From: an uncultured Planctomycetota bacterium
GTDB lineage: Bacteria > Planctomycetota > PLA2 > JAEUHO01
Reading direction: 5' to 3'
DNA: 64,000 bases
Assembly (NCBI GenBank): GCA_963802335.1
Contig: CAWDIE010000004.1
Span: 407,446 to 471,445 of the forward strand
The notes below the pieces were generated by a model. The model did not search any database and was not told the origin of the DNA. It saw only the letters and a list, made by a program, of their open reading frames with translations. Each line of letters opens with the position of its first letter. Position 1 is the first letter of the stretch. Of this stretch, positions 30,061 to 51,080 are shown piece after piece. The position numbers and the translations under genes were made by a program.

Positions 30061-30348
30061 GCCCGCATTCTGCGCCTGACTGCGCCCCACCGTCTTCCCT
30101 TCCTGTCGTGGCGGCTGAACGATCACTTCGATTCAGGCACCTCGGCGGATCTCCTGGTCGAAGCAGGTCGAAGTCTGATCGCCGGCGCCTCGCCTCCAAC
30201 GCTCCCCGCCGATGGCGGCGTCGAGAACTACAACGGCTCCGTCGACGATGCGCTCGCGTCCGGTCTGCTTCGTCGCGTGCTGGCGCAGACCGAAGTCTCC
30301 TTCTCGAATTAGTTGCAGCGCGAGCCCACGCTTCCGACAACTGGAGTG

Positions 30349-33300
30349 ATGGGACACCCCAAGACGCGACACGAGACTCCCGAAGCGCTGCTCCAGCGCT
30401 GGCGCCGGCGTCGCGACCCGGAGGCGCTCGGCGCGCTCTTCGACGCGACCGCCCCGGCCCTGTTCCGCGTCGCCCTCGGGATTCTCGGCGATCCGAACCA
30501 GGCGGAAGACGCTCTCCAGGAGACGTTCCTCACGCTCCTCGAGAACGCCGAGGGGCACGACGCGAAGCGGCTCGTGACGCCGTGGCTCGTGGGGATCCTC
30601 CGCAACCACGCACGCGCGCTGCGCCGACGATCAACTCGTGCACCAGATCCACGACGGCTGCGAGGGGCGTCGAGCGGCGCCCTGCCTGCGAGCGCCACGG
30701 AGCGAGGGCTCGACGATCGGGTACGTCGGGCCTTGGACGACTTCGACGAGCCTTATCGCAGCGTCGGTTTGCTGCACTGGTGCTATGGGCTCTCCCCCGC
30801 CGAGATCGCCCACATCCGAGGGGAGCCGCCCGGAACGACGCGATCCACGTTGACTCGAATCAGGCAGCGCCTTCGCGAGAGGCACCCCGAGCACGCCGCG
30901 CTCCTCGGCGTGGGCCCGACCGGGCAGGGGTTGGCTGCGCTTCGAGCGGAGTTGTTGCAGCACGCGGGTCGTAAGGCGGCGAGCTCCGCCACCCTCGTGC
31001 TGGGAGGTCTGGTGATGAAGAAGATCCTGATCGCCGTCTTTGCCGTGCTGGTCGTCGGGCTGCTGGCGTGGCTCCGTCCGTGGGCGAGCACCGACGCGCC
31101 GCCCCTGGATGGCGCTTCGAAGCCTCCCACGGCAGTCGCCGCCCCTCTCCCCCCGGACGGAGCCGCGCCCCACCTCGCCGGTCGACCCACGCCGACGGTC
31201 GAGACACCTGCCCCAACGCCACGCGGCCCCGTCGTGCGGGGTGTCGTGGTGGACGCTGCCGGGGTGCCCCTTGCAGACGCGCGCGTGTTCGTTGTGCCGG
31301 CGGATCACGCCGAGCGAACGCCGGACCCCCTGCCCATGCTGGACCCAGCGTCGGGGGGCGCGCGGAGTGATGCCCAGGGTCTCTTCCTCGTCGACGTGCC
31401 CGAGGGCGTGACCCGGCTCGACCTCTTGGCGGCCGCGGAGGGCTTCGCACCGGAGCTGCTGCGCGACGTGCTGGTCCACGACGACGTGCGCGTGGTGCTC
31501 GCCCGCCATCCCAAGCTCGAAGGCCGCATCCTCGACGTCGAGGAGCGTCCGGTGCCGGGAGCCGTGGTCAGGATCCGGGGGCTGCTCGGCACGCTCTCCT
31601 TCGAGCGTGAGACCGTGACCAGCGACGAGGGAACGTACGACCTCGACCTCCCGCTCGGTCCGGGCGAGCTGCTCGACTTGCGCGGCGTGCCGCTGGGCTG
31701 GCACCTGGCGGTGGAAGCGGACGGCTTCGCGCCCCTCCTCCACGGCAGCGTGCGCCTCGGCGTCCTGAGCCGCGCGGTGTCGGGTCGCACCTACACCCGC
31801 GACTTCGTCCTCCTGCGCGGCGGCACGCTGGCCGGCCAGGTGACGGATGCGGCGACGGGAGGACCGGTTGCCGAGGCGCGCGTCGTGGTGTTCAACCGCG
31901 GCGGCGACCTCAGCGTCTCCTTCGGCGACGGACGGCGCGCGATCCTCGACGCTGAGCCACGGACGCTCGGGATCGCGACCACCGACGACAACGGCCGCTT
32001 CGAGATCCGTGGACTCCCGGCGCGGGACCCGCGCGCAGGGAACTCGGGTGGTGCGCTGGGCTGGGCGGCGGCGTGGAAGCAGGGGCACGCCGCGTCGATC
32101 GTGTCGGTCGCCACGCCGGATGACGGCGGGCGCTCGACGCGGGACTTCACCCTGCGACGGACGGGCCGCATCGAGGGCCGCGTGGTCGGTAGGGACGGAG
32201 CTCCCGCGCCGACCTGCCGCGTGACCGCATACGCAGACGCCCCGGCGAACCTCTCCCTCGGCTTCCTGGAACCGCCCGGAACGCTGGGCGCGCCGACGGT
32301 GGTGACGCGCACGTCGACCGACGGCACCTTCGTTCTCCCGCATGCCCCGGCCGGCTCTCCTATCACCGTTCTCGTCAATCCCCTCGGCCCGCTGGGCGGC
32401 TTCACGTTCGAACAGCGCGGGGTCTCGTTGGACGCGGGGGGGATCGCCCGAACGCCCGACGTCGCGATCGGCCGTCCGGCCGGATCCTGGGTACACGCGG
32501 GCATTCGCGTGCTGGACGCCGAGGGGCGCCCCATTGCCGGTGCGGACGTGGGAACGAGCCCGACGGTGACCTCGGCCTGGTCCGACGCGGAGGGCCTCGT
32601 GCGTCTCCGATGGGCGCGAGGCGGCCCTGCGAAGCCGCCGGAGGCCTATCTGGTACGAGCCCCGGGTCATGCACCAGCGCTGGTCGCCATCGAGTACACG
32701 GAAGGCGAGGCCGATCCCGTCGAGGTCCGGCTGGCTCGAGGCCACGTGCTGACGGGAAAGGTGGTCGAGGCGGACGGGTCGCCCGCCGCCGGCGTACGCA
32801 TCACCGTGGCCGACGGGCGCGTTGAGGCGAAGCGCGCACTGCCCGCGGAGCGTTTCGACCTGGGTGGACTCCAGCCGGGCCAGAACGCGAACCTGGATCT
32901 CCTGGGCAAGACCCTCACACAGGAGGACGGTAGCTTCCGCGTTGGCGACCTCCCCGAGGGGCCCTACCACGTCGAGGCGTCCGCCAAGCGCGAGCTCTGG
33001 GGTGTGAAGCCCGCGCCCGAACGCGCACGCGTCCTGAAGGTGGGCGTTCCAGATGCCGAGGCCCTCGTCGAGCTCGTGCTGCCCGAGGGTGGCACGCCTC
33101 CGGTTGGTCGCGTCCGCGGCCGCGCGATAGACGAAAGCGGGCGAAGTGTCTCCGGGGTGGAGGCCTGGCTCGAGCGCGAAGGGCAGATGGCGAGCACCGA
33201 CCGCGTCGGCCCAGGGCGCTTCGCCATCGCCGCGGCGCCGGTGGGCGTCTGGACGCTTCGGGTGGAAGCCAAGGGCCGGGTCCCCCACTACGAGAAGGGC

Positions 33301-33948
33301 CTCCAGGTGAAGGAGGGGAACACGACCGATGTGGAGGTCGTGCTCGCTCGTGGCGTAGCCGTGGAGGGCAAGGCGCTGGACCCGGAGGGGAGGCCGCTTG
33401 GCGACTACGAGATCGGCTTCTCGCCGGTCGGAAGCGAAGGATGGCGAAACCGGACGGTGCTGACCCCGGTCGGGCCCGACGGGTCGTTCCGGACCGCGGG
33501 ACTCGTCCCGGGCGTCTGGCGCGTCGCCGCCGCGCCGCGAGGCCAGTTCAGCTCACGCTCGGCGTCCGCCGTACCGAAGGGGAGCCCGTTCTTGCGCATC
33601 GCGAAGGGCGAGACGGAGGTCCGCTTCGACGGGGTGTTCGTCGCGGGCGGTCGGCTCTCGATCAGCGTCGGAGGCGAGCAGTGGCCCCGACCGCTCCTGT
33701 TCGCGGCGTCGACCACCGAGCAGATGGCGTTCGGCGAAGCGTCGAGGATCGTCGTCCTGGACGGCGCAGAGCGCACCCTCGTCGACCACCGCGACCTCTA
33801 TGGTTCCGGGTACCTGGGGGAGGCGTCGCAGATCATCGTGGCGACGGGTACTTACCTCGTACGTCTCGAGAGCCCGGCGGGCACGAACGAGCAGCAGGTC
33901 GACGTAGAGAGCGGCGGCCGGGCCCGCGTGTACTTCGAGAACCCCTGA
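30349..33948 (+). CDS. ECF sigma-70 factor in frame with TM segment and ~9 CarboxypepD_reg-like repeats (fusion, or two genes with lost stop)
   Basis: Residues 1-190 carry sigma region 2/4 motifs (DALQETFLTLL, YRSVGLLHWCYGLSPAEIA). A TM segment, MKKILIAVFAVLVVGLLAWL, follows. Repeated modules such as VRGVVVDAAGVPLADARVFVVP and LAGQVTDAATGGPVAEARVVVFN come next. There is no stop codon between the parts. Confidence 0.65.
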   Translation: MGHPKTRHETPEALLQRWRRRRDPEALGALFDATAPALFRVALGILGDPNQAEDALQETFLTLLENAEGHDAKRLVTPWLVGILRNHARALRRRSTRAPDPRRLRGASSGALPASATERGLDDRVRRALDDFDEPYRSVGLLHWCYGLSPAEIAHIRGEPPGTTRSTLTRIRQRLRERHPEHAALLGVGPTGQGLAALRAELLQHAGRKAASSATLVLGGLVMKKILIAVFAVLVVGLLAWLRPWASTDAPPLDGASKPPTAVAAPLPPDGAAPHLAGRPTPTVETPAPTPRGPVVRGVVVDAAGVPLADARVFVVPADHAERTPDPLPMLDPASGGARSDAQGLFLVDVPEGVTRLDLLAAAEGFAPELLRDVLVHDDVRVVLARHPKLEGRILDVEERPVPGAVVRIRGLLGTLSFERETVTSDEGTYDLDLPLGPGELLDLRGVPLGWHLAVEADGFAPLLHGSVRLGVLSRAVSGRTYTRDFVLLRGGTLAGQVTDAATGGPVAEARVVVFNRGGDLSVSFGDGRRAILDAEPRTLGIATTDDNGRFEIRGLPARDPRAGNSGGALGWAAAWKQGHAASIVSVATPDDGGRSTRDFTLRRTGRIEGRVVGRDGAPAPTCRVTAYADAPANLSLGFLEPPGTLGAPTVVTRTSTDGTFVLPHAPAGSPITVLVNPLGPLGGFTFEQRGVSLDAGGIARTPDVAIGRPAGSWVHAGIRVLDAEGRPIAGADVGTSPTVTSAWSDAEGLVRLRWARGGPAKPPEAYLVRAPGHAPALVAIEYTEGEADPVEVRLARGHVLTGKVVEADGSPAAGVRITVADGRVEAKRALPAERFDLGGLQPGQNANLDLLGKTLTQEDGSFRVGDLPEGPYHVEASAKRELWGVKPAPERARVLKVGVPDAEALVELVLPEGGTPPVGRVRGRAIDESGRSVSGVEAWLEREGQMASTDRVGPGRFAIAAAPVGVWTLRVEAKGRVPHYEKGLQVKEGNTTDVEVVLARGVAVEGKALDPEGRPLGDYEIGFSPVGSEGWRNRTVLTPVGPDGSFRTAGLVPGVWRVAAAPRGQFSSRSASAVPKGSPFLRIAKGETEVRFDGVFVAGGRLSISVGGEQWPRPLLFAASTTEQMAFGEASRIVVLDGAERTLVDHRDLYGSGYLGEASQIIVATGTYLVRLESPAGTNEQQVDVESGGRARVYFENP
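31002..31017 (+). promoter_or_regulatory. internal RBS + ATG inside the sigma/repeat ORF
   Basis: GGGAGGT (31002-31008) lies 6 nt before ATG 31015, which opens a signal-anchor-like MKKILIAVFAV. Confidence 0.45.
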
Positions 33949-34015
33949 CCGCACCGACGGCCTACCTTCGCCCCACCGTCTTCACCTTTGCCCTCGGCGG
34001 CGACAACATGCAGGC

Positions 34016-34138
34016 ATGAGCACCGGGCGCCTCCTGCGGATCTACGACCACCGCCTCGTCCGGCTCGTCCGGGAAACGAGCGAAACCACCATCGCAACCG
34101 GCATCGGCATTCCGCGCTCGACCGTGGCCAGCGGTTGA
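34016..34138 (+). pseudogene. 40-codon fragment resembling a transposase/integrase N-terminal HTH
   Basis: MSTGRLLRIYDHRLVRLVRETSETTIATGIGIPRSTVASG resembles the HTH start of IS481/IS3-type transposases. It is followed directly by a stop. Confidence 0.3.
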
Positions 34139-34158
34139 AGCCTTTCTCTGCGCCGCAA

Positions 34159-35265: not shown

Positions 35266-35473
35266 GTTGCGCGCGGTTTCGATAGGTGCTGCGGCGAGCG
35301 GGAACTCACCGCGGATGCTCCGTAGCAGGCAGGGAACTCGCCCGCCAAGGGTGGGATGCACGCGGAATCGGCCGGCTGGTCCCTCCGCACAGTTCATCGT
35401 CGCACTGGCGCGTGTGGTGGATCCCGGCACGGCTGCGTCCCCGGCGACACTCGGCGCGACATGAGGCAAGACC

Positions 35474-35715
35474 ATGCCGTATCCGCGTATCACAGCCGAC
35501 CTGAGCGCATGGGAGGCGTGCCCTGCATCCGCGACACGCGCATCCCCGTGTCCACCATCATCTCGATGGTGGCTGACGGAATGGTTGCTAGTGCGATCTT
35601 GGTGGCTCACTCCGACCTCGTTGCGGACGACATCGCCGAGGCGCTCCGATTCGCGGCGCAAGCCGTCCGCGAGGGCGAGATCCCCCTCTCGAATGCGTCG
35701 AGAGACTCCTCGTAG
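35474..35715 (+). pseudogene. DUF433 antitoxin-like protein with 1-nt frame disruption
   Basis: MPYPRITAD (frame of ATG 35474) continues as PERMGGVPCIRDTRIPVSTII..DIAEALRFAA in the frame of ORF 35356..35715. One extra C in GACC(C)TGAG would restore a canonical DUF433. Confidence 0.6.
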
Positions 35716-35880
35716 ACAACGCTCTCTCGCCGGAGCCGGCCGTCGTTCTCACCGGCATGGAGCACGCTGAGGTTCATGTACGCGCCATCGACATGGCGCG
35801 CGCGAGGGACGCGTAGACCTTCGACTTCGCGGTGACGCATGATCGTGTCGGCGCTTCGGGAATCCATGTGGGTGATTGAG
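35693..35880 (+). pseudogene. DUF5615 (PIN-like, Mut7-C) toxin remnant
   Basis: The frame from 35700 reads RLLVDNALSPEPAVVLTGMEHAEVHVRAIDMARARDA then a stop, after which TFDFAVTHD follows. The start is out of frame with ATG 35693. Confidence 0.4.
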
Positions 35881-37724: not shown

Positions 37725-38327
37725 ATGAGCGACCTTGAGGCCGTGCTTCGAAGGATCATCCTGAGTCTGCAGGAGCAGGGGGCGCGATTCGCTATCGTTG
37801 GGGGACTTGCCGTCTCAGCGCGCACCGAACCTCGGTTCACGCGTGACGCTGATCTGTGCGTGGCGGTCAGGGACGACGCAGAGGCGGAAGCGCTCGTCCA
37901 TGCGCTGCGAGCTGACGGATATGCGTTGGTCGCGCTCGTCGAGCAGGAGGCAGCGGGACGCCTCGCAACGGCTCGCCTCTCGGACCCTCGAACATCCGAA
38001 GGCGGGGCGGTCGTAGATCTGCTCTTCGCATCCTCGGGCATCGAACCTGAACTTGTGGGACAGGCCGAGGACATCGAACTCTTCGACGGAATCGATGCCC
38101 CGGTCGCCACCGTACCCGGGCTGATCGCTCTCAAGGTGCTCTCACGCGATGATCGTACGCGCCCTCAAGATCGAGTCGACGCGCATGCGCTCCTCGCGGT
38201 TGCCACGCCGAGTGACATCACCGCAGCTCGCGATCTCCTGGCGACGATCGAACACCGGGGCTACGCACGAGGTCGAGATCTCGATGCATCTCTCTCTGCG
38301 TTGCTGGCGGAGTCCGGCTCAGCGTAG
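37725..38327 (+). CDS. nucleotidyltransferase AbiEii/AbiGii-like toxin family protein, cassette 3
   Basis: FAIVGGLAVSARTEPRFTRDADLCV shows the NTase motif. The C-terminal region matches the family (LIALKVLSRDDRTRPQDRVDAHALL). Confidence 0.65.
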   Translation: MSDLEAVLRRIILSLQEQGARFAIVGGLAVSARTEPRFTRDADLCVAVRDDAEAEALVHALRADGYALVALVEQEAAGRLATARLSDPRTSEGGAVVDLLFASSGIEPELVGQAEDIELFDGIDAPVATVPGLIALKVLSRDDRTRPQDRVDAHALLAVATPSDITAARDLLATIEHRGYARGRDLDASLSALLAESGSA

Positions 38328-38366
38328 CGCTGCTCGACGGGCTCGACGGCTCCCTCTCCCAGCCTG

Positions 38367-38454
38367 CGGCCGGTCCAAGGGAGAGAGCCTGATCGAAGCC
38401 CATTTCCAGTCTTCAGGCGGACACAATTACGTCGAGGGAGACACGGCGACGGTC
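38367..38454 (+). repeat. block B (~85 nt), copy 1; second copy 46022-46099
   Basis: cggccggtccaagggagagagcctgatcgaagcccatttccagtcttcaggcggacacaattacgtcgagggagacac is nearly identical at 46022. Confidence 0.7.
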
Positions 38455-38516
38455 TCGGCGCATCGTGCGTAACGCGGCAACGACGCGCAGCTTGGGGCGA
38501 GGTGCTGCAAGGAGAA

Positions 38517-38942
38517 TGGAGTGCCCGATCGGAGTCGAACCGACGCGAGGTCCCCTACGCTGCGCTCCGGGGACTCACGTCGGAACCGACCTGTGCTTTC
38601 CAAGGGGGTCTTCTCAAGACCCCCTTGCGGTCTCGCCTGCGCTGCGCTGCGGCGAGGCCTATCCCCCAATGAATGTCGTCGTGGCCTTGCCGGCGGGACG
38701 CGGCCCGAGGATGGGGACGCGCGGTGGAGTGGAGTGCCCGATCGGATTCGAACCGACGCGAGTTCCCCTTCGCTACGCTGCGGGGACTCACGTCGGAACC
38801 GACCTGTGCTTTCCAAGGGGGTCTTCTCAAGACCCCCTTGCGGTCTCGCCTGCGCTGCGCTGCGGCGAGACCTATCCCCCAATGAATGTCGTCGGAGCCT
38901 TGCTGACGATTGGCAGCCCGAGGATGGGGACGCGCGGTGGAG
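38517..38942 (-). repeat. two tandem ~213-nt units, each ending (minus strand) in a tRNA-like T-arm/acceptor/CCA
   Basis: The units are 38517-38729 and 38730-38942. Each contains the perfect hairpin GGGGGTCTT-GAG-AAGACCCCC and two stem-loops with 13-nt GCAGCG-rich loops. Confidence 0.75.
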
Positions 38943-39033
38943 TGGAGTGCCCGATCGGATTCGAACCGACGACATTCAGCTTGGGAAGCTGTGGGGTGGA
39001 CTCGGTTCCCCGGAGGTTCTCCGTGGGTTCCCC
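38943..39033 (-). other. att-like junction: 49-nt copy of tRNA-Gly positions 28-76 plus three GGTTCCCC arm repeats
   Basis: Positions 38943-38991 are identical to 52405-52453. The direct repeats start at 39004, 39015 and 39026. Confidence 0.7.
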
Positions 39034-39281
39034 GATTTCGGGATCCTGGGATTCGGGCTGATCGCGCGCTGGGATCGGAAGTTGCTGGTACTTCGTGGGT
39101 TGTGTCGACTCCCCTCTCGCGCTCATGAGCGCCCCCTGAGTAGCGGGGAACCTGGCCGCCTGTTCCGCCCCTGCCCCCGGATGGTGTCAGCCCGACGCGT
39201 CGAGAACTCGACGGCTGCCGCCCCATGTCGCGGCCCCCCGACCGCCATCTGCCCGCACACGCGCCGCGTACAATCGTGTTC

Positions 39282-39521
39282 ATGAGTCCGACGGTCTTCC
39301 GAGACGGCCCCTACCGTTTCTTCTTCTTCTCGCGAGAGGAGACGCGGCTCCACGTACATGTGGAGTCGTCAGACGGTGAAGCCAAGTTCTGGTTGGACCC
39401 GAGTATTGAAGCGGCTCGATCGCACGGCCTGAAGGAGAAGGATCTGCGTCACATTCGCGATCTTGTCGTGGAACATGAACAGGAGATCAGAGATGCCTGG
39501 ACCCGTCACTTCGGACGTTGA
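39282..39521 (+). CDS. DUF4160 domain protein
   Basis: FRDGPYRFFFFSREETRLHVHVESSDGEAKFWLDP is the hallmark of this family. Confidence 0.75.
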   Translation: MSPTVFRDGPYRFFFFSREETRLHVHVESSDGEAKFWLDPSIEAARSHGLKEKDLRHIRDLVVEHEQEIRDAWTRHFGR

Positions 39522-39870
39522 GGTCACCAACATCTCGCGGCACGGCATCTGGCTGCTTCTTGACGACCGTGAACTATTCCTTCCGTTTGAACAGTTCCCT
39601 TGGTTCGAGCAGGCGACCGTGGGAGCGATTCACAAGGTCGAGAGGCCTCAACCCGACCATCTCTACTGGCCGCAGCTGGATGTCGACCTCTCCGTGGACA
39701 CCATCGAGCACCCGGAGAAGTACCCCTTGAAGTCGAGGGGCGGGCAAGCCGTAGAGGGGGGTCGGACCTCAGTGCAAAGGCCCACGATCTTTGACACAGG
39801 CTGTCGCGGCCCCGGAGCTTTGACCCGGTGTTTAGGCCCACGACAATTGACACGCGGCCCAGACGCCTGA
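39493..39870 (+). CDS. DUF2442 domain protein (extended C-terminal tail, stop possibly displaced)
   Basis: It overlaps the DUF4160 gene. VTNISRHGIWLLLDDRELFLPFEQFPWF is typical of the family. The tail after ..YPLKSR looks non-coding. Confidence 0.6.
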   Translation: MPGPVTSDVEVTNISRHGIWLLLDDRELFLPFEQFPWFEQATVGAIHKVERPQPDHLYWPQLDVDLSVDTIEHPEKYPLKSRGGQAVEGGRTSVQRPTIFDTGCRGPGALTRCLGPRQLTRGPDA

Positions 39871-40102
39871 TTGCTGCGGGTGTTACTGGCACAACGTAGT
39901 GCCAGCGCGACGCAGCCGTGTGCCCCTCATCCGGGCCTGGCGGAATCTGACGGAATCGAGTGGGAAGGCTCGCGGACCGGCCGCCGCAACCATCGAGAGC
40001 CTCAGAACTCCGTACTGCGCCGGCCGCAGAAAATAGCTCCCTCGAGCCGATGCCAAATCTCCTGGGCCTATACAAGAGCACCGCTACACCTGGCCGTGGC
40101 AC

Positions 40103-41495
40103 TTATCTGGTCGCACGGAAGACCGTGCCGGGCTCGCCCGCGTGTAAGACCCCTTCAGGAAAGTCCACGGCGGGAGCGAGGTCCTGACCGAAGTACAACC
40201 GCGTGTAGAAATCCAACCAAGTGATGGCTCGCACGCGATACTGGCCCGGCGGCATGGATGGCAGGTGGAGGCCCCGGGGGGGGCGCACCCACAAGGACGC
40301 GCGGTAGCCTGCCCGACTGATGGCGACGGATACCAAGCCGGAGAATCCCACGAGTTCGGCGCGAAGGTCCATTGAAGGGCTCAGCTCCAGCAGTACTGCC
40401 TGAGCACCTGGGCGCACCTCGGAGACCATGGCCGCTGAGGAGCCACTCCGCGCGATCAGCGTACACGCCGTCCCGTACGGCACCCGCAGCGCGAAGTTGC
40501 CTGCTAGCGTGGCAGTGGGCGAGCCAAGGAAGACCCCTGAGTCACGTGCCCACACCTCCACCTCCGACTCAGCGGCTGGGCCCTGCCCCACGACTCGGCC
40601 CTGAAGGAGAGTTAGTGGGCCACAGGCAATCTCCACGCCATCGGCTCCAGCCGCCACCGGCCCGTGCACGGCGAGGATCCTGTCCCCCGTTGACCGGACA
40701 ACCAGGTAGTAGTCTCCTGGCGCCAGCCCCCCGATCGCGAATGAACCGCCGCCGCCGAGTTCCGTCAGGGTCTCGTGCCGGCGTACAGCCAGCTTGGCTT
40801 CGGCCGATACCGCCTGTACGCGAGCACCCGCGGGGGCACCCCGGGAGGGGACGATCAACGTGCCCGCAATCCGCAGGCCCGGCTGGGCGTCCAACTTGAT
40901 GCCGGTGTCGCCTGTTCTGACGACGACCGGGCTGCCCAGGAGCCCCCGTTCACTAAGGCCAGCAATACCAACCCGCAGCTGTCGCCCTTTGGGAACGCCC
41001 TTCAGGCGAAACTCACCGGAAGCGTGGATTCGGTCCCCATCGATCGCTACGAGACCAGCCTCGAAGATGGACACCGGCTCCCACAGTGCGACGATTTGAG
41101 CGCTCTCGAATTCATCGACAGCGAAGCAATCACGAGGCCATGAATGCTCCGAGCCGGCGTGAGCGGTACTCGTATGTCCTCGGCTGGTCGCAGGCTCGGT
41201 AGGGTTCCCGCCAGTTCATTAGCTGCCTGTGATTCCGGTTCCGTCTGGAGTGATAAGACCTGCGGCGCAACGTGGCTGTCTGGGACAGTGACTTCCAGCC
41301 GAACCTCCTCGATCTCGTTGGGGATCCGGTCGAGCCAGAAGCTTCCGTCCGAGCCCAACGACGCAGCCCTCGATGACGAGCTGCCCGTCAGCTCTCCAGC
41401 TCGCAGTACGCAAGTCACCGAAGTAACAGCAACCCCCCGGCCTGTGACTGCATCCACGAAGCGCCCTGCGATTCGTGGCCTGGTCGCGGCAAGAA
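40103..41495 (-). pseudogene. CarboxypepD_reg-repeat protein, C-terminal part (gene split by IS21-like insertion; extra frame disruption near 41150)
   Basis: Repeat modules are IAGRFVDAVTGRGVAVTSV, IAGTLIVPSRGAPAGARVQAV and LQGRVVGQGPAAESEVEVWA. The gene continues in frame with 45484-45644 once the IS is removed. Confidence 0.6.
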
Positions 41496-41574
41496 CAAAA
41501 GGGACCCTTGCGGCACGTTGAAAAGGGACCCCCGACGAATCAGAGGAGGGGGAGTTCAGAGGGGGCGCAGCCCC

Positions 41575-42934
41575 ATGTGCGTTAACCAAGATCCATGCCA
41601 CCAGGAGTTCAGCGAGCGTCGAATGCTGCTCGGTGCGCCTTCGAGGCGGCTCGTTGAGGGTGACATTGCCGCGCTCTATCGCCACAACCAGGCGACTCAG
41701 GCGTGGGATCGGGCATAGCGCTTGGCGAAGTGCGGGGAGGAGCACCGCCGTCCAACGCCAACGATTGGGCGTGTCGCCATCCCCCTCAACTCGCTGGGAG
41801 TTCGAGGCGGTACCCCCAGGGGGAAAAACGGCCGGCGTTGCGGTGCAGCTTCCGAGCAGTAGGGCCACCACGAGCTTTGCCAGGATCCAGGAGCGTCCGG
41901 TCTCCGGGTTCGTGTGTGGAAGCCGCCCCAGGCGCAGGAGTTGCTTGTGGCGCTTAAAGGCGATCTCGATCTGCCAGCGGAACCGGTAGAGGTCGAGGAT
42001 CCCCTCGTCGGACAAGAGGCTCTCCGGAAGCGTAGTGAACACCATCACGAAGTGCGCCGCTTCCAGCGTACGCGGGTCCGTGTTCCGTCCCTTCCTGCTC
42101 GCCCTGCGTCGAATTCGCTGTTTCGTACGCTCCGCCACGGGGGCTGGGAGCCGAATCGCCACAACGCGCCCGGATACGGGTTGGGTTCCCTTTGGCGTCA
42201 CCCAGTGAACCGGCCACGACTTGACTTGGCCGACACGAAGCCGACGCGCCTTCTTGAGAACTTCGAAGTTCCTCTTCTTCGCGGTCTGCATGCGAGCGTG
42301 CCGCCAGCGAATGCGCACCAGAATGTGGGCCGGACGGGACGCCGCGAACTGCAGGTCCTTGAGGCGGCTGAAGTGTCGATCCCCGAGAATCACGTCACCT
42401 CGGCCGATGGGAGCGCGAGCTAAGGTCTCGCCCTTAGAGCCGTCCGTGAGCTCCAGCCAATCACACGAGAGGGTGCGCAGGTCCAGCATGTAGTGCAAAC
42501 GCCAGTCGGTGCCCTTGCTTCCCGGCTTGCAGAGGGTCGAGCCGTCGATCGCACGCAGGCGCAGGCCATCGGGGAGCCGCGGAGCTTCCCGAAACTCCCG
42601 GCAAAGCTCTGCGGCGATCCAGCCCAGCCACGCTGCCGAGGTGCGCAGGCGCTTGTAGAGGGCCACAGAGCTCATGGAGGCGATCCCGGCTGCTTCCGCC
42701 TGAGCGGCCGTAGACCGCAAGGAACCGTCGTTTACGGCGTGATAGAGGAGGAGCCGCAAGAGGTCAGCTGGCCCTTTGTGAACCTAGCGCGCTTAAAAGC
42801 CCCGCAATCCCAAGCGGCCTCCTCCCACCCGGAAGGCAGAAGCTTCATGATTAAATGCCACTCATCGCTGGTTTGCGCCATACACGCACGATACCGACGA
42901 AGGGCGTCGGGGCAACCCTTAGGTTAACGTATAT
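41575..42934 (-). mobile_element. IS4-superfamily (DDE_Tnp_1) element, 1360 bp
   Basis: The terminal inverted repeats are ATGTGCGTTAACC and GGTTAACGTATAT. A 13-bp direct repeat ggggcgcagcccc sits at 41562-41574 and 42935-42947. The transposase (YRFRWQIEIAFKRHK) has an N-terminus (ATG 42848, MKLLPSGWEEAAWDCGAFKRAR) that is out of frame with the body. Confidence 0.7.
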
Positions 42935-43848
42935 GGGGCGCAGCCCCCTTTGATGCCTTGGCCCGAAGGGCCGCAGGCCCGAGGGCGCCCCCCATGGGGG
43001 GCGAGGATCGGCGCGCAGTTTGCTGCGCGATCCGCTCGCGTCCTGGGCGTCGGCCAGGCGGTGCCGTGCGCTTGACGGCGCTCGACGCCTGCTCTTCTTC
43101 GCCGTCCTCGAGCCGGTAGCTCTCGCCCTCGGTCTTGAAGACGCTCGCGTGGTGCACGATGCGGTCGATCACGGCCGCGGCCGCCGTCGCGTCTCCGAAC
43201 ACCTCCGTCCAGCGGGAGAACGGCAGGTTCGTCGTCACGACGAGGCTGCGGCGCTCGTACACCTTCGTGATGAAGCCGAAGAGCAGGTCGGCCTCTCCTT
43301 GTCAAAGGGCACGTAGCCGAGCTCGTCGAGGACGACGAGGTCGAAGCGCGCCAGCTGGTCGAGCTTGCGCGACTCAGCCGCCCCTCGCGCTTGGCCTCCA
43401 CGCAGCATGTTGGTGAGCTCGGCCGCCGTGGTGAATCGCACGCGCTTCTCGTGCTGGCAGCAGGCGATGCCCAGCGCAATCGCCAAGTGCGTCTTGCCGG
43501 TGCCGACGGGGCCCATAAGCACGACGTTGTGCGCATCGTCCACGAAGTCGCACGTCGAAGAGCTCGAGCACCTCGTCGCGGTCGAGCTTCGGCTGCTGCT
43601 TGAAGTCGAAGCCGTCCAGCGTCTTGAGCAAGGGGAAGCTGCGCTTCGCTTCGTGCGGCGTTGTATGCGACGCTCCGCCGCTTGCTCACCTCCAGGCTCA
43701 TCAAGTCGGCCAGGTACTCGACGTGGCCTTGTCGGCGTCGGCGCGCCTCCTCGGCATGCGCTGCCAGTTGGCATTCACCGTGGACAGGAACAGCGTCTTC
43801 AGGTCCGTCGCGAGGATGCGGCGGCTCCTCGATCTTCGGTATCGCCAT
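42924..43848 (-). pseudogene. istB: IstB-like ATPase of IS21 element, multiple frame disruptions
   Basis: LKTLDGFDFKQQPKLDRD, NVVLMGPVGTGKTHLAIALG, FDLVVLDELGYVPF and YERRSLVVTTNLPFSRWTEVFGD are spread over three frames. Confidence 0.7.
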
Positions 43849-45338
43849 GCTCTCGTCTCCGCAGAGTCGTCGTATCCGCCAGCTCAGGCTCGTCGATCGT
43901 GATCGCCAGCAGAGCCTCGGCCGTTGGCACGGCGTGGCTGCTCGGCGTCGTCGAGCGCAGGCTCGCCGGCAGACGGAGGATCTGCTGGATGGTCTCCAAC
44001 CGACGCGAGCCGCGCTCGAGCGCCTCGTCTACGGCGGCTTCCACGAGCATCCTCGCCGTGCTCCTGGGCCAGCAGGAGAACGCGCACCCACTCGCTGGTC
44101 CGACTTGCGCGTGTCCTTGGCCGATGCGTCTCCGCAGCTCGCAGGAAGACCGCGGGGAGCACCCCGTCGCGAAGGGCCGTGGCCTCGCCACTGCTCGGTG
44201 CTTCCTCGCCAGCAGCGGCAGCACGTGCCGAGGGTCCAGCTGGTAGGGCCCCTGTCTTGAAGGTCCGCTCGTGGCTCGCCACGACCTCGCTCGTTGAGGC
44301 AGATGTCCAGGCGATCGAAGTAGGCCTTCACCCACGACCGGCCGGTAGGCGTACCGGATCGGTACCGAGTACGTCTCGCGCATCGACCACCACGTGGCCG
44401 AACTTGTTCGCCACGTAGCTCGTCTGGCGGCAGGTCTCGGGGCGGTGGCCGGAAGCGGACGCAGGTGCTCGCGCTCGGCCTGCCACGCCTGACGCACCGT
44501 GCGCCCATCGGGCACCGTGCGCAGATCCATGTCGTGCACGAGCTCCTGCGAGCATGAGGGCGTTGAGCTCCTCGAAGCTCGCCACGTACGGCATCGGCCG
44601 GAAGCACGTTGTTGCGCACGTACTTCACGCCCGTCTCCGCCGAGCCCTTCTCGTTCCCCTTGCCGGGCGCACAGAAGCTCGGCCGCAAACGGGTACTGGC
44701 CCTCGGAACGCGTCAAAGGCCTCGCGTCACCTCACGGTCGCGGCCGCGCAGCACCTTCTTCACCACCAGCGACGGTGTTGTCGAAAACGACGCGCTCGCG
44801 TGACCCCGCCGAAGAAGGCGAACGACTCCGCCAGGCCGTCGAGCAGGCACTCCAGGCGCTCCACCGGATAGGCCCGGGCGAAGTAGACGTTGCTGCACGG
44901 AAGCGTGGTCACGAAGAACTTCACCTTGCGCAGCTCGCCGGCGATGATCGCCCAGGACTCGCCGAAGTCGGCCTCCATGGTGTCGCCCGGGCCGATGGGT
45001 GCGGTGGACGAAGGCCTCCTTGGCGAAGAGCTCCGGCGCGAAGCCGGGCCACGTACTTGCGTAGCGGTCCGGGGCTTGACCTGCCCTGCCGTGGGCTCGA
45101 GGAGGCGCCCGATGCGCTTGGCCGTGATCTTCGGATCCTCACGGAGCAGGGCCTTGATCTCCTCGTAGTGCGGATCCAGCAGCGCGGGCGCGACCACCGG
45201 GAAGCCCGCTGCGGCGGCTGCTCGCACTCGAGGGCCCGACGGACGGTCTTGATGTCGAGCCCAAAGCGCCTGGCCAGCGCCTTCTTCGGACACCTCCTCC
45301 ACGAAATGCTGGTGGCGAAGCTCGGCCCACTGCGACAT
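43799..45338 (-). pseudogene. istA: IstA-like transposase of IS21 element, multiple frame disruptions
   Basis: MSQWAELRHQHFVEEVS is followed by KKALARRFGLDIKTVRRAL in another frame, consistent with one extra C in GTGTC(C)GAAG. The catalytic region is spread over ORFs 44760..45347, 44029..44688 and 43799..44716. Confidence 0.7.
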
Positions 45339-45483
45339 TCTGATCACCTCCGCGGTCCTCCTCCGGTGGCCTCGAAACGGCTGTTGAGAACCGCTTCGAT
45401 ACCTGCCGGGGGGGACCCGGATCTCCTCCGCCCGCTCAGCGCGCCAGGGGGTCCCTTTTCAGCGTGCCGCGGGGTCCCTTTTC

Positions 45484-45644
45484 AGAATGCCGTCCCATGG
45501 CCCTACCCACTTCGGTCGATCCGGCCTACGAGGTCCACAGAAGTGCATACGAGACACGCCCGCTGCCACGGCAACACCGATCAACGCTACCCCAACAACA
45601 AGCGCCAGCACCCGCAAGCCTTGCCTCTTGGCGTGGAGCATCAC
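45484..45644 (-). pseudogene. N-terminal 54 codons (signal anchor) of the CarboxypepD_reg gene split by IS21
   Basis: The sequence is MMLHAKRQGLRVLALVVGVALIGVAVAAG...PKWVGPWDGI. Joining it to 41495 across one copy of the 4-bp duplication gives in-frame ..WDGILAATRPRIAGRFVD. Confidence 0.6.
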
Positions 45645-45662
45645 GACCTCCCATGCGGAGCC

Positions 45663-45926
45663 CTATCCACCTCTATGATTGCCGCAAAAGCCTCTGGGGT
45701 GTGGACGATTCAGCGGCTTGAAGCGCTCGTCGACTCCGCCCGGATGCACTTCGAGTCCATCCACCTCTCGCGCTTGGATCCAGTCCCAAGACCGCATGGC
45801 AGTCGGAAGCTCATATCGTCCCTTCTTGCAGCACCCGAGACAAGTTCTGTGAAGGTCTGCGAGGTCGGCCCGCATGCCAGTGTAGCGAGCCTCAACATCC
45901 CTAAGAGCCGCCGTGACCTCGGGCAT
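45663..45926 (-). CDS. hypothetical protein
   Basis: The composition is not shadow-like (MPEVTAALRDVEARYTGMRADLADLHRTCLGCCKKGRYE..). The start is uncertain because the upstream part of ORF 45663..46058 runs into repeat block B. Confidence 0.25.
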   Translation of the reverse strand: MPEVTAALRDVEARYTGMRADLADLHRTCLGCCKKGRYELPTAMRSWDWIQAREVDGLEVHPGGVDERFKPLNRPHPRGFCGNHRGG

Positions 45927-46021
45927 TCCTGCTAACGCACCCACTATGCCAATCCGAGGATCGAGAGTGGACACAATCCCGTCCTTCTCTCTCGTCCATC
46001 GCTCGTCCCTTCTCCGGCCTC

Positions 46022-46238
46022 CGGCCGGTCCAAGGGAGAGAGCCTTATCGAAACCCATTTCCAGTCTTCAGGCGGACACAATTACGTCGAGGGAGACACC
46101 CAATGAATGTCGTCGGAGCCTTTCTGACGATTGCCAGCCCGAGGATGGGGACGGGCGGTGGAGTGGAGTGCCCGATCGGATTCGAACCGACGACGAGGTC
46201 CCCTACGCTGCGCTCCGGGGACTTACGTCGGAACCGAC
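46022..46238 (-). repeat. block B copy 2 + unit spacer + 5' part (plus-strand sense) of a unit truncated by an IS
   Basis: Block B is 46022-46099, and the tRNA-like 3' end string starts at 46164. The unit sequence stops at ..cgtcggaaccgac (46238) and resumes at 48100. Confidence 0.65.
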
Positions 46239-48099
46239 TGCTCGGCGACAACTACACCCGTGCATCCCGTTGCCTCATTCGGAAATGCTACCGTCTGCCT
46301 CATCGAGAATCGCACCAAGAGAGAAGTGCTTCTGGGGGGTGTACAGAGGGGGCGCAGCCCCCTTTGATGCCTTTGCCCGAAGGGCCGCAGGCCCGAGGGC
46401 GCCCCCCATGGGGGGGCACGTGTTGGCGCGCTTCTTGCTGCACGCCTCTCCGGCGTGAACTCACAGCCACGGGTAAGGAGATCCTAACCGCCGGATTCCG
46501 CAACTTCCCCGTACTCGAGACGCGTTTCCCCTGAGAACACCAGGCGGCGTGCGGCGGCCATTCGCCACTCCTTGACGCGTCGCTGGAGCGTTCGCAACTG
46601 GCCATCGCCGAACGCGTCCGGATGCTGCATTCGCAGTCGAGCGAAGAGTTCCTTGGCCGTTTGATCCGGTTCGCTCTCCAACCACACGAGCACCTTGGGC
46701 CAGACCTCTGCGAATGGATCCACACGCGTTCGCCAGTAGCGCTTGACCTTGGGCTTCGGTCGATGCGTCGGCCGAGCCTCACCCTCCTTCCAGATCGTAG
46801 ACAAGCTGGCCAGAAACTGGTCGAGGTCCCTGTCTCGCTGTGGTGGTGTGCGCACGGAATCTCCGCCAGCAAGGCCGGCGATGTGGCCCTGCATGGTTCG
46901 AATCTCGTCCAGCAGTCGCAACGGATCCAGCGATGCGAGAACCGCCCGCATCTTCTCCTTCGGCTCCTCGGCTACATGAGGGGATGCAAGCAGACGCGCG
47001 CAGGGAGTCTGCGGGGTGTCGTAGTGCTTGCGCACGCGCGCACCGACGCGCTCCTTCCTGAGAAGCTTGAAGGACGGCTGGAAGAAGTTCACGAAGAGCC
47101 GAGTACTGCTGTAGATCCGAGCCAGGGCCTCAGCTGCAGCGATACCCTCCAATCGTCCGTAGCCGACCATGCGCCGAACCACGCTGCCGTTCTTCTGCTC
47201 GACCCACGCCTGGTCGTTCTTCCGATAGGGACGAGAGCGCGTGAACTCGATGCCATGCTCCTTGCTGAAACCCAGTAGGGTTTCATTCACGAATTCGCCG
47301 CCGTTGTCTGTATCGATGCCACGCAGGGGGAACGGCATCGTGGTGCGCAGCCTCTCCAGCGCATCGACGACGAGAGCCGAGTCGCGGACCGCCAGCGCGG
47401 CGCACTCCGTCCAGCCCGAACAGATGTCCGTGAGGGTCAGCGTATGATTGTAGCGCCCGGAGATGATGCCGCCGCAGTGCGCGACGAGGTCCGCTTCCAT
47501 GAACCCCGGCAGTGGATCGCCCCAGTCGGCGAAGGTGCGCACGGGGACCTGACTCCTGACGGCCGAAGGCTTCCGGCGCGGCTTCTTGGAGGCAGCACGC
47601 GCCGGAGTGAGGAGCCGATCAATGGTCGACGCGCTGACGTGAAGGAGCTTCTCGCGAACCCCCTCGTCCAGGTCGAGGTGACCGTGACGCTCCAGGGAAC
47701 TGATGAGGATCGGCAGGAGGGGGCGAAGGCGCTTGCCGCAGATGCGATCCGATGCCTCCCAGAGCACGACCAGCGCTTGGCGAACGGACTCCCCGTACAG
47801 AGAGGGACGCGAGGTCCTTCGCGGTTTGCCGGCCTCGCCTTGCCCTGCAGCACGCGCACGGCGTGCTTCCTGTGATACCCCGTTACCCGGACGAACTCAT
47901 CCAGGATCTTCGTCTTGTCGCCCTTGCTCGAGTCCCGGTAGCGGGATGCCACCGCGCTTACGAGTTCCGACCGGGCCTCTCGACTGATGTTCGCCATCGT
48001 GCCTCCTCGTTCTGCTCCTTTCGGTAGCAAAACTCGTGAGGCAACAGCCCCCCTTCGGTAGCAGAAGAGGTGACGCAATGCGATGCACAAAGGTAATTG
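46239..48099 (-). mobile_element. rve-type (IS481/ISNCY-like) IS element inserted into a 213-nt unit
   Basis: Imperfect 20-nt inverted repeats are caactacacccgtgcatccc (46249) and gcgatgcacaaaggtaattg (48080-48099, 16/21 match when reverse-complemented). About 14 nt of unit sequence is present on both sides. Confidence 0.6.
46484..47997 (-). pseudogene. DDE integrase-type (rve) transposase with one frame disruption near 47790
   Basis: ATG 47997 follows GGAGG, and the HTH part is MANISREARSELVSAVASRYRD..GYHRKHAVRVLQGKA. The catalytic part (DTDNGGEF, RPYRKNDQAWVEQKNG) is in another frame. One extra A in GGCAAA(A)CCG restores continuity. Confidence 0.7.
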
Positions 48100-48471
48100 A
48101 CGTCGGGCAACCGACCTGTGCCCTTCAAGAGGGTCTTCTCAAGACCCCCTTGCGGCCTCGCCTGCGCTGCGCTGCGGCGAGGCCTATCCCCCAATGAATG
48201 TCGTCGTGGCCTTGCCGGCGGAACGCGGCCCGAGGATGGGGACGCTCGGTGGAGTGGAGTGCCCGATCGGATTCGAACCGACGCGAGGTCCCCTTCGCTT
48301 CGCTACGGGGCTCACGCGCCGGAACCGACCCGTGCTTGCCAAGGGGGTCTTGTCAAGACCCCCTACGCGCCTCGTCTCGCGCTGCGGCTGCGACGAGGTG
48401 CTACCCCCAATGAATGTCGTCGCGGCCTTGCCAACGATGCGGGGCCCGAGAATGGAGACCGCGCGGTGGAG
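48100..48471 (-). repeat. remainder of the split unit (48100-48254) plus one complete unit (48255-48471)
   Basis: The architecture matches 38517-38942. The hairpin variants are gagggtcttctcaagaccccc and gggggtcttgtcaagaccccc. Confidence 0.7.
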
Positions 48472-48561
48472 TGGAGTGCCCGATCGGATTCGAACCGACG
48501 ACATTCAGCTTGGGAAGCTGTGGGCAAACTTGGTTCCCCGGAGGTTCCCCGTGGGTTCCCC
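48472..48561 (-). other. att-like junction: 49-nt tRNA-Gly 3' core plus three GGTTCCCC arm repeats
   Basis: Positions 48472-48520 are identical to 52405-52453. The repeats start at 48532, 48543 and 48554. Confidence 0.7.
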
Positions 48562-48781
48562 GATTCTGGATCGCGCCAGGCCGCGCTGATGAGCTCGGGC
48601 GGTACGGAACCTGCTACGGCTGCGTGGGTTACGCTCCCACCCACACGACCCCTCCATCCAGGGCCCTGGAGTAGCGGTGAACCAAGCCTTCGTGGAGCCT
48701 TGATGACAGCTGGCGGCGTCGTAGGTGCGGCATCGTGACCCGCGCCGAGGGCGCGGGCGGCCCTGCGGTAGACTGGCATCC

Positions 48782-49081
48782 ATGGCCACACAACGAGACC
48801 ACACGGCGCGGATCCTGCGCATGGCGATGCCTGAGCTGCAGCAGCGCTTCGGTGTGGTCTCCCTCCGCATCTTCGGCTCGGTGGCCCGCGATGAGGCGGG
48901 CCCGGACAGTGACGTGGACATCCTGGTGGAGTTTTCCGGCCCGGTCAGTCTCTTCGTCCTCGCCGACCTCCGAGACTTCCTGACGGAGGCCTTGGGCCGC
49001 CCCGTGGACGTCGGCACGGAGGCGTCTCTGCGCCCGCGGATCCGCGAGGCCGTCGTCGCCGAGGCAGTCCGTGTCGCCTAG
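48782..49081 (+). CDS. mntA: MNT-type nucleotidyltransferase antitoxin (type VII TA)
   Basis: LRIFGSVARDEAGPDSDVDILVEF shows the GSxxR..DxD minimal NTase motif. Confidence 0.85.
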   Translation: MATQRDHTARILRMAMPELQQRFGVVSLRIFGSVARDEAGPDSDVDILVEFSGPVSLFVLADLRDFLTEALGRPVDVGTEASLRPRIREAVVAEAVRVA

Positions 49082-49415
49082 GTTCTTGAAGGACCGACTC
49101 CGCGACATGCTCGAGGCCATTGAGGAGATCTTCGAGTTCACCTCAGGCATGGACGCAACCGCGCTCGCCGCCGACGCGAAGACCCTCAAGGCGGTGCTCG
49201 CGGATTTCGCCATCATTGGCGAAGCTGCCACGCACCTCCCGGAGGAGGTCACGAACCTCTACCCTGACGTGCCGTGGCGCGCGATGCGCGCCATGCGCAA
49301 CTTCGTCATCCACGCGTACTTCAGCGTCGAACCCGCCATCGTCTCGGAGACCATCCGAAACGACCTGCCGGACCTCGCCGCACGCCTCCGCACGATCCTC
49401 GATGAAGACGCCTGA
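49071..49415 (+). CDS. hepT: HepT/DUF86 HEPN-domain toxin
   Basis: It overlaps the MNT gene by 11 nt. RNFVIHAY is the Rx4HxY HEPN motif. Confidence 0.85.
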   Translation: MSPRFLKDRLRDMLEAIEEIFEFTSGMDATALAADAKTLKAVLADFAIIGEAATHLPEEVTNLYPDVPWRAMRAMRNFVIHAYFSVEPAIVSETIRNDLPDLAARLRTILDEDA

Positions 49416-49484
49416 ACGGCCCACGAACTTTGAGTGAGGCCCGAGCCGCACCGCCAAGGCATCGACATCGCACGCGGACGCCGT

Positions 49485-49527
49485 GTCGAGTAGTCGAACA
49501 CAATGTGCGGAAGGTCGTGACACGGAG
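49485..49527 (-). repeat. island-specific ~44-nt intergenic repeat (copy)
   Basis: gtcgagtagtcgaacacaatgtgcggaaggtcgtgacacggagc is the reverse orientation of the 30017 and 37147 copies. Confidence 0.6.
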
Positions 49528-49585
49528 CAGCGCGACAGGGAAGACCGGCCTTCTCATCCCATCCATACACGTACTCAGCTGACGC

Positions 49586-50014: not shown

Positions 50015-50098
50015 TCCCCATCCGGGAGATCAAGGTGCCATGGGCGGTGGGCTCTCGAGGGCCGGCCACGCGTTGAGGTGTGCAGGCGCGTAGTGAGA

Positions 50099-50188
50099 TG
50101 GAGTGCCCGATCGGATTCGAACCGACGACATTCAGCTTGGGAAGCTGTGCGGCGATGTCGGTTCCCCGCTGGTTCCCGTGGGTTCCCC
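50099..50188 (-). other. att-like junction: 49-nt tRNA-Gly 3' core plus three GGTTCCC(C) arm repeats
   Basis: Positions 50099-50147 are identical to 52405-52453. The repeats start at 50160, 50171 and 50181. No 213-nt unit adjoins this copy. Confidence 0.7.
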
Positions 50189-51044: not shown

Positions 51045-51080
51045 CGAGCGCCCCGGCTACTCTGCGATCCACGTATGGCC

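Follow-up and report, generated by a model that had tools for sequence, protein, structure and literature searches.

What keeps a short, gene-less piece of DNA lodged behind the 3′ end of one particular tRNA gene, and what multiplies it there? The question is raised by a stretch of 64,000 nucleotides (nt) from an uncultured Planctomycetota bacterium (GenBank assembly GCA_963802335.1, contig CAWDIE010000004.1, positions 407,446 to 471,445; hereafter the window, with positions counted from its first letter), where structured units of about 213 nt, each closed by a copy of the T-arm, the 3′ acceptor strand and the CCA of a tRNA, follow a tRNA-Gly(CCC) gene and its fragments. Integrative elements classically land at the 3′ ends of tRNA genes, and the short repeats that remain at such sites are usually deemed scars. 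Here, a gene-less piece of 184 nt between such repeats is maintained by compensatory evolution in several genomes. The reading that we favour, to which we would give a probability of roughly 45%, is that the unit is a miniature, gene-less insert flanked by attachment (att) sites at the tRNA-Gly(CCC) 3′ end, with a structure under selection and probably transcribed as the tRNA trailer.

The window has a G+C content of about 66%, and the homologues of its proteins are labelled Planctomycetota. Its single tRNA gene is a tRNA-Gly(CCC), the last 28 nt of which (T-stem, T-loop, 3′ acceptor strand, U and CCA) occur nine times on the minus strand, as against none in shuffled sequences; the ends of these core copies are at 52405 (the tRNA itself), 52192, 50099, 48472, 48255, 46164, 38943, 38730 and 38517. 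Likewise, the perfect hairpin of the unit is found five times where none is expected. These repeats belong to five units of 213-217 nt and one stub of 65 nt, all on the minus strand and each directly 3′ of a T-arm-to-CCA core, be it that of the tRNA, of a 49-nt tRNA fragment or of another unit. They are listed here with their flanks (loci from other genomes carry L numbers, and the helices P1 and P2 are described further on):

52405-52480, minus strand: intact tRNA-Gly(CCC) with an encoded CCA (ARAGORN; Rfam tRNA model, 72.7 bits), whose last 29 nt are the repeat that closes every unit.
52192-52404, minus strand: unit U5, the sole window copy directly behind the intact tRNA, with all helices intact (0 broken pairs, 243.9 bits).
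52149-52191, minus strand: "post" flank after U5, a homologue of which directly follows the tRNA CCA in L022, L024 and L027.
48255-48471, minus strand: unit U4, a divergent subtype of 217 nt (202.7 bits), directly behind the 49-nt core 48472-48520 and L005-like in its 3′ half.
48100-48254, minus strand: 5′ part of unit U3, cut in the small hairpin by an insertion sequence (IS); an uninterrupted homologue lies at 7399-7611 of L009.
46164-46238, minus strand: 3′ part of unit U3, sharing about 14 nt with the 5′ part; the IS encodes an rve-domain transposase (46484-47767).
46099-46163, minus strand: unit stub, the first 65 nt of the U2 subtype (97% to U2), followed by unrelated DNA.
38730-38942, minus strand: unit U2, directly behind the 49-nt core 38943-38991, with intact helices and a compensated U-A pair in P1 (249.7 bits).
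38517-38729, minus strand: unit U1, the last of the array, with a C.A mismatch in P1 and a T-loop changed from GAAT to GACT.
38468-38516, minus strand: "post" flank after U1, 77-83% identical (blastn, over core plus 49 nt) to the DNA after the tRNA CCA in L022 and L024.

U1 and U2 form a tandem (38517-38971 in Tandem Repeats Finder: period 213 nt, 2.1 copies, 93% matches, score 805). An earlier note on this DNA, made from its letters, had given the coordinates of the units and listed their parts, all of which are present in the sequence; it had also put the identity to the tRNA at about 29 nt from T-arm to CCA, and 29-31 nt, from T-stem to CCA, are measured in every unit. The unit that it described as split by an IS is indeed U3, whose halves add up to 75+155 nt, more than 213, because some 14 nt (GTCGGTT..CCGACGT) are present in both. 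Its rule that units always lie 3′ of the tRNA or of a 49-nt core holds in one direction: every unit follows a core, including the cores of other units, but the core at 50099-50147 is unit-free.

Is this arrangement found elsewhere? A hairpin scan of 185,579 species genomes returned one true homologue, L001, a Planctomycetota metagenome-assembled genome in which tRNA-Gly(CCC) is followed by a single unit of about 200 nt ending in the same T-arm and CCA. A gapped-pattern search of metagenomes added two carriers: L005, with the tRNA and one 213-nt unit, and L007, where the unit is interrupted by the contig end and the CCA has decayed. Four further unit contigs (L009-L012) were reached through a translation search with one open reading frame (ORF) predicted across the unit; such ORFs are sometimes called there because the unit is G+C-rich and open in several frames. 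Four other candidates (L002, L003, L004 and L006) were discarded as chance matches, terminator-like hairpins among them. The carriers besides the window are thus seven Planctomycetota contigs, with the unit behind tRNA-Gly(CCC) or its 3′ fragment in all that can be judged (the contig of L007 ends too early). A covariance model, R1, built from 11 units, detected no further copies across the window and the collected loci; all its matches above 30 bits lie directly 3′ of a tRNA-Gly(CCC) core or are fused to one (L011), again with the exception of L007, and 30 of the 30 tabulated cores derive from tRNA-Gly(CCC).

The earlier note knew of no described RNA family laid out in this way, and this is borne out in Rfam 15, IMG/VR, INPHARED and PLSDB. 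At the gathering score of Rfam 15 the tRNA is the sole match in the window, an E-value scan of 38300-39200 gave nothing convincing (best 15-22 bits, to unrelated families), and the Rfam tRNA models do not match the unit. Pattern scans of IMG/VR (hairpin, gapped unit pattern and 43-nt core) gave no real match, while INPHARED (50,697 phage records) and PLSDB (72,556 plasmids) returned ordinary tRNA-Gly genes only; a known phage or plasmid attP arm was rejected on these results. Literature searches found no description of this unit.

How the unit relates to its site is seen when relatives are compared. The universal-stress gene upstream of the tRNA served as a synteny anchor and yielded four further intact tRNA-Gly(CCC) loci (L022, L024, L027 and L028). 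In L022, in L027 and three times in L024, the CCA is directly joined to a homologue of the post flank, i.e., the site is empty; in the window, U1 and U5 are the only units that it follows. In L005 the tRNA is followed by a unit and then by a flank starting CTCTTTCCGTCGCTCG, and in L012 this same flank stands directly after a 49-nt tRNA 3′ fragment (core at 5898), with no unit between. Between filled sites (window, L005, L010) and empty ones (L012, L022, L024, L027) the difference is exactly 184+29 nt. The unit therefore stands out as a discrete insert, made of 184 nt (hereafter X) and a 29-nt duplicate of the tRNA end; where it occurs, singly or in tandem, it lies exactly at the joint of the CCA with the conserved post flank, and elsewhere this joint is uninterrupted. 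Of the seven intact tRNA-Gly(CCC) loci, three carry a full unit, three none and one (L028) a truncated unit. The earlier note had proposed to look beside tRNA-Gly(CCC) in related genomes; the unit is there in seven other contigs and is missing in L022, L024 and L027, and it is therefore not a core partner of the tRNA.

Furthermore, the terminal 29-nt copy tracks the sequence of the local tRNA: in L001, where the acceptor pair is C2-G71 in place of U2-A71, the terminal copy of the unit has the same G71. Unit turnover is fast, and copy number differs between close relatives. L009 and the window are 97.7% identical over 3.1 kb; the core-proximal unit of L009 (L009a) is of the window type and diverges from U4 more than the surrounding DNA does, and the next unit, unlike U3 of the window, contains no IS. 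Displaced copies show mismatches, a 1-nt deletion in P2, the IS insertion and truncations, while the three tRNA-adjacent copies are full-length and U5 keeps every helix intact.

Two side observations concern the same boundary. In L028, about 23 nt of the unit start are retained behind tRNA-Gly(CCC) and are followed by a Hachiman defence island (HamA and a DEAD-box helicase, 1461-4692); in L012 (4284) the break falls at nearly the same point of the unit, which hints at a recurrent breakpoint some 20-23 nt past the CCA. In turn, the tRNA-Gly(CCC) genes with a unit or a remnant (window, L005, L028, L001) have the T-loop TTCGAAT and the three unit-free ones (L022, L024, L027) have TTCGAAC; with n=7 loci, this difference may be phylogeny only, yet position 60 lies within the presumed crossover region.

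Does X hold anything beyond the distance between two repeats? Covariation was judged on 12 sequences from about four independent lineages, in a covariance-model alignment fitted to the structure. Paired cells amount to 91.2%, as against 39-55% when the partners are slid, and 15 pairs are changed on both sides, as against 2-7 in the slid controls; 0 of 500 shuffles reached any of the observed measures of pairing or covariation. In three hairpins of the unit (P1, the outer pairs of P2, and P4/P5) compensatory substitutions have preserved the pairing, at a level above controls:

P1: 9 bp with an apical GCG/CGC or GCC/GGC mini-hairpin; 7 of the 9 pairs have double changes, and the stem sequence differs in each of the four lineages.
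P2: a perfect hairpin of 11 bp, almost invariant in sequence, whose two outer pairs switch from A-U to C-G or G-C.
P4/P5: the long 3′ hairpin, with double changes in five pairs, in the stretch just outside the 29-nt copy.

The covariance model suggested by the earlier note has thus been built, with 15 double-changed pairs above both slid and shuffled controls. As to the compensatory stem changes that the note had seen, true double changes occur in U2 (U-A), in U4 and in other genomes, but the example it cited consists of two single changes, the C.A of U1 and a U.G of U5. Moreover, single-sequence folds recover the same architecture across the four lineages, P1 geometry and apical mini-hairpin included, and the loops, the single-stranded motifs and a ACATTCATTGGGGG block are conserved; blocks of sequence are kept between stems that have diverged.

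The tRNA-like end of the unit behaves differently. The T-arm and the small GTCG/CGAC hairpin are invariant across the alignment, and covariation is therefore silent there, neither for nor against. In the minimum-energy folds CCGACGYG pairs with CGCGUCGG, which uses up the 5′ strand of the T-stem and makes the T-loop one side of an internal loop; in most copies, this strand is paired with the upstream CCGAC in place of a T-arm, and the competing helix is lengthened by pairs that covary. The earlier note had found no 5′ acceptor strand in the unit, and none is to be seen. The best look-alike, GTCCCCG, is the 5′ strand of the fourth stem and resembles the tRNA 5′ acceptor strand GTGCCCG; a hidden acceptor stem or pseudo-tRNA, GTCCCCG:CGGGCAC, was rejected, as one column never pairs, the motif is absent in L001, covariation is zero and the tRNA models are silent. 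As for the strand, G.U exceeds A.C by 9:0 in P4/P5 and by 14:2 in P0, and the RNA fold of U5 has a z of -4.27 on the sense strand and of -2.42 on the antisense; this bias and the predicted folds point to the tRNA-sense strand.

Why are there so many copies? Three 49-nt tRNA fragments, from the anticodon stem to the CCA, lie at 38943, 48472 and 50099, each preceded by an arm of about 200 nt, in which GGGGAACC stands three times in direct orientation, with an 11-nt spacing, and once inverted. Each is the right end of a small cassette:

38943-39190, minus strand: 49-nt fragment (38943-38991) and GGGGAACC arm, right end of a DUF2442 cassette (DUF2442 at 39463-39870).
48472-48720, minus strand: 49-nt fragment and GGGGAACC arm, right end of an MNT/HepT toxin-antitoxin cassette (genes 48725-49415, plus strand).
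50099-50340, minus strand: 49-nt fragment and arm, not followed by a unit; right end of a cassette whose gene (50511-51044) is nucleotidyltransferase-like.

The stretches between cores measure 1.6, 2.3 and 9.5 kb, the longest containing two IS elements, and their genes are of toxin-antitoxin type (MNT/HepT, DUF2442 and nucleotidyltransferase-like); unrelated DNA follows the core at 50099-50147. Cassettes in other loci carry DUF4160/DUF2442, DUF5615/DUF433 and HicAB. The cassettes recur at 88-90% identity in L010 and L012, the DUF2442 cassette with its arm among them, and are followed there by the other unit subtype; it is therefore the host lineage, rather than the cassette, that the subtype accompanies. 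Unit-free L024 displays a like process with an arm of another type: its 49-nt core plus about 950 nt of post flank appear three times around toxin-antitoxin cassettes.

The simplest account of most of the unit copy number is serial insertion of cassettes at tRNA-Gly, the older 3′ ends being pushed downstream. Accretion of elements at att repeats, with decayed elements retaining attL and attR, is established (PMC5704250; PMC3146451), and it explains the units behind the 49-nt fragments. The head-to-tail pairs U2-U1 and U4-U3 are left unexplained by accretion, and recombination between the 29-nt repeats is needed for them.

Several observations on the array and its surroundings may be added. The cassette array (window 38943-52404; also L009, L010, L012 and L024) has an integron-like look, and an integrase was not found in the window ORFs and gene tables examined. 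The three core-plus-flank repeats of L024 (10682-11628, 14778-15750 and 19527-20471; 93-96% identity) include the start of a 397-aa ORF; being far longer than the att identity block, they suggest either that the chromosomal flank is copied along with the cassettes or that homologous recombination participates. The IS elements inside the array are at 46239-48099 (rve transposase 46484-47767, splitting U3) and 41047-42759 (DDE_Tnp_1 transposase), and a G+C-rich repeat of 67 nt, 99% identical, lies near both (42935-43001 and 46349-46415). To the left of the last unit, 33960-34156 and 35293-35796 are homologous to cassette DNA of L012 (80%) and L011 (84%, DUF433 gene), and between some 34 and 52 kb the G+C content remains low (0.64-0.66); it is therefore probable that the island array reaches as far as about 34 kb, past the last recognisable tRNA fragment. 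Large fusion proteins of an ECF-type sigma-70 N-terminal part with repeated CarboxypepD_reg domains are encoded near tRNA-Gly both in the window (30313-33948, plus strand) and in L001 (3353-5968, minus strand), at differing relative positions.

Direct GGGGAACC repeats (at least three, at 11-nt spacing; 39005-39033 and 48533-48561 in the window), in many cases close to an inverted GGTTCCCC, are shared by eight viral contigs of IMG/VR (L013-L020). These contigs are unrelated, range from 42 to 72% GC and have no tRNA core; the motif is therefore generic, and the GGGGAACC iterons were dropped as a marker of an element family. The repeats look like a widespread iteron or arm-site motif for a putative DNA-binding protein. 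The idea that the unit is a shrunken cassette was likewise abandoned, X having scored at or below shuffle means against the post flank and the GGGGAACC arms.

Taken together, the repeat from T-stem to 3′ end, the existence of both filled and empty sites, the patchiness of the distribution and the hotspot context argue that the unit arose, and is gained and lost, in the manner of att-flanked elements, while compensatory evolution, the conserved loops and the ACATTCATTGGGGG block argue that it is not a dead scar. The 29-nt repeat would be the footprint of a site-specific recombination that crossed over in the T-arm, attL/attR-like, and the unit would be an extremely reduced element of the cis-mobilizable element (CIME) kind. 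The unit has identical flanking repeats and no genes, and its X is unlike the cassette ends. Later gains and losses could proceed by recombination between the 29-nt repeats. Progressively, insertion of cassettes upstream would have displaced the copies now found behind 49-nt fragments, which are probably not independently functional and several of which are decaying.

In addition, X would be transcribed from the tRNA promoter as a 3′ trailer and would act as RNA. tRNA-Gly has a promoter-like TTGACA-N17-TACCTT, conserved in L005, L027 and L028, and, given the strand bias and the position behind a promoter-driven tRNA, a transcribed trailer RNA would be the most economical reading. Its most likely role would be that of a stable processing, termination or insulation structure between a strongly expressed tRNA and toxin-antitoxin cassettes of opposite orientation; a trans-acting small RNA seems less likely.

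Several points weigh against the miniature-insert reading. A scan of 30 window ORFs and the gene tables of L008-L012 and L021-L030 revealed neither a PF00589 integrase nor another recombinase, and no phage-borne or free copy of the unit was found in IMG/VR, INPHARED or PLSDB. A circle of 213 bp is very small as a recombination substrate, and units could be gained and lost without any integrase, through simple homologous recombination between the 29-nt repeats or through replication slippage there. On the RNA side, a scan for canonical promoters and terminators (U-tract) scored nothing; the conserved P2, the ACATTCATTGGGGG block and the AGCG-rich loops exceed what a terminator needs and could equally mark protein-binding DNA. 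Finally, the sample is small, with its four or so lineages, and the alignment was fitted to the structure.

Two alternatives, both unlikely, survive better than the others. According to one, the unit would be a host non-coding RNA that mimics a tRNA 3′ end, processed from the tRNA-Gly transcript and recognised by tRNA enzymes (3′ maturation, the CCA-adding enzyme, tRNA-targeting toxins), with a protected 3′ end or a decoy as the outcome. That the unit begins one base after the CCA and closes in ...UCCA, that its terminal 29 nt match the local tRNA even where the latter has changed (L001), and that the neighbouring cassettes encode nucleotidyltransferase/HEPN-type toxin-antitoxin pairs would all suit such a molecule, as would the covarying hairpins with their sense-strand G.U bias and the conserved loop and single-stranded motifs. 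Nevertheless, a host RNA of this kind is lacking in three relatives whose tRNA-Gly(CCC) is intact, a fourth has it in truncated form, and the mimicry itself fares poorly: the T-arm lacks covariation, there is no acceptor helix, folding and covariation favour another partner for the T-stem 5′ strand, the CCA is decayed in L007, the T-loop is changed in U1, L010a and L010b, and the Rfam tRNA models fail to recognise the unit. One of the two readings offered by the earlier note, an RNA co-transcribed with the tRNA and mimicking its 3′ end, is thus to be divided: covariation, G.U bias and position after the tRNA support the co-transcribed RNA, whereas the invariant T-arm and small hairpin and the competing fold leave the mimicry unsupported.

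The other alternative, which we hold improbable as well, places the function in DNA: the hairpins, in single-stranded or cruciform form, or a protein-binding palindrome, would serve the recombinase of the cassettes, much as integron attC sites or attP arms do, and the terminal 29-nt core would offer an extra landing site. In favour of this, the cassettes, of 1.6-2.4 kb, are small and devoid of a recombinase, and their boundaries are sites derived from the tRNA. No unit occurs in a genome or contig that lacks cassette arms of the GGGGAACC type, and L024, with arms of another type, has no unit. P2 forms a perfect palindrome in which the arms are constant and the centre varies, P1 keeps its structure and not its sequence, as folded attC sites do, and a G.T bias would suit a folded DNA strand equally well. 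Nonetheless, some cassette boundaries are unit-free (the 50099 core; L012), the unit subtype tracks the host lineage, and X resembles neither cassette arm nor post flank; a recombinase was not found in the ORFs and gene tables scanned, and the units of L001 and L005 show no cassette signature in the sequence analysed.

A third possibility, to which we attach little credence, is an inert scar, i.e., the leftover of one ancient element or a duplicated tRNA trailer, passively copied, whose hairpins would be G+C-rich chance or a generic terminator. Remnants are common at tRNA and tmRNA hotspots (PMC5704250; PMC3146451), many copies are visibly decaying and the distribution is patchy; mobile DNA is shared at 88-90% identity among these genomes, and similarity alone is therefore no proof of constraint. 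Against this stand the 7 of 9 P1 pairs and the five P4/P5 pairs changed on both sides, far above slid and shuffled controls, the recovery of the architecture from single sequences in four lineages and the blocks conserved between diverged stems. The other reading of the earlier note, a remnant junction of an integrative element that crosses over in the T-loop, is likewise to be divided: the repeat from T-stem to CCA, the 184+29 nt by which filled and empty sites differ and the differences in copy number speak for a junction, but compensated hairpins in four lineages do not befit a dead remnant.

Bolder, and quite improbable, is a new class of mobile structured RNA that hitchhikes on tRNAs: gene-less, duplicating the end from T-arm to CCA, expressed and 3′-matured by the tRNA machinery and serving the toxin-antitoxin cassettes. 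The unit might, for example, be a decoy or antidote for toxins of tRNA 3′ ends, or might assist, as RNA or as folded DNA, a putative recombinase by which the cassettes are shuffled, in the role of a cofactor. Finally, a protein-coding repeat, suggested by 213 = 3 x 71, by four of six frames being open across U2-U1 and by the ORFs that gene callers predict there in other assemblies, is refuted by unit lengths of 200, 207, 212, 213 and 217 nt and 1-nt indels between copies that break every frame, by substitutions that track stems and not codons, by the lack of a Pfam domain in all four matched ORFs and by the failure of a sense-frame query to match any of 5.8 billion proteins.

Returning to the miniature insert, its interest lies in that the unit is gained, lost and multiplied as a whole, which points to one of two things: an att-flanked element smaller than any yet described, or a new structured RNA expressed via tRNA-Gly. 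Its setting is a little-known hotspot of Planctomycetota, where small toxin-antitoxin cassettes ending in tRNA-Gly fragments pile up with no visible recombinase. Model R1 and the pairs of filled and empty sites make the readings directly testable.

Among known systems, the closest in layout are CIMEs of the ICESt1/St3 type and the Dehalococcoides ssrA islands, in which non-autonomous DNA likewise lies between direct repeats of the 3′ end of an RNA gene; as in CIME and accretion arrays, the repeat ends exactly at the gene 3′ end and serial repeats stand behind one intact gene with decayed pieces between, and, as at the Dehalococcoides ssrA site, the repeat begins in the T-arm (PMC3146451; PMC5704250). 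Unlike CIMEs, the unit has merely 184 nt and zero genes between its repeats, forms true head-to-tail tandems and has an interior under compensatory evolution in several genomes, with no cognate integrase found among the ORFs and gene tables scanned. With integron attC sites and cassette arrays it shares the small, promoterless, often toxin-antitoxin cassettes devoid of a recombinase of their own, and a non-coding module with a strand-specific fold, in which the sequence drifts but the stems covary. Unlike integrons, there is no IntI and there are no R and L box motifs, some cassette boundaries lack units, and the boundaries are tRNA-derived; the unit is also longer than known attC sites. A third comparison is offered by tRNA-trailer RNAs, such as 3′ETS-leuZ of E. 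coli, and by tRNA-like modules, such as tmRNA, YrlA and the phage P4 CI RNA. Like them, the unit is non-coding, lies immediately behind a tRNA with the same direction of transcription and has a T-arm/CCA-like end; unlike them, it has neither an Rfam match nor an acceptor helix, its T-arm is probably not formed, it is dispensable in close relatives and it is flanked by an exact DNA repeat of the tRNA end. The unit, confined to a small uncultured clade, thus differs in a defining feature from each of the three, be it CIMEs and accretion arrays, attC sites or tRNA-trailer RNAs.

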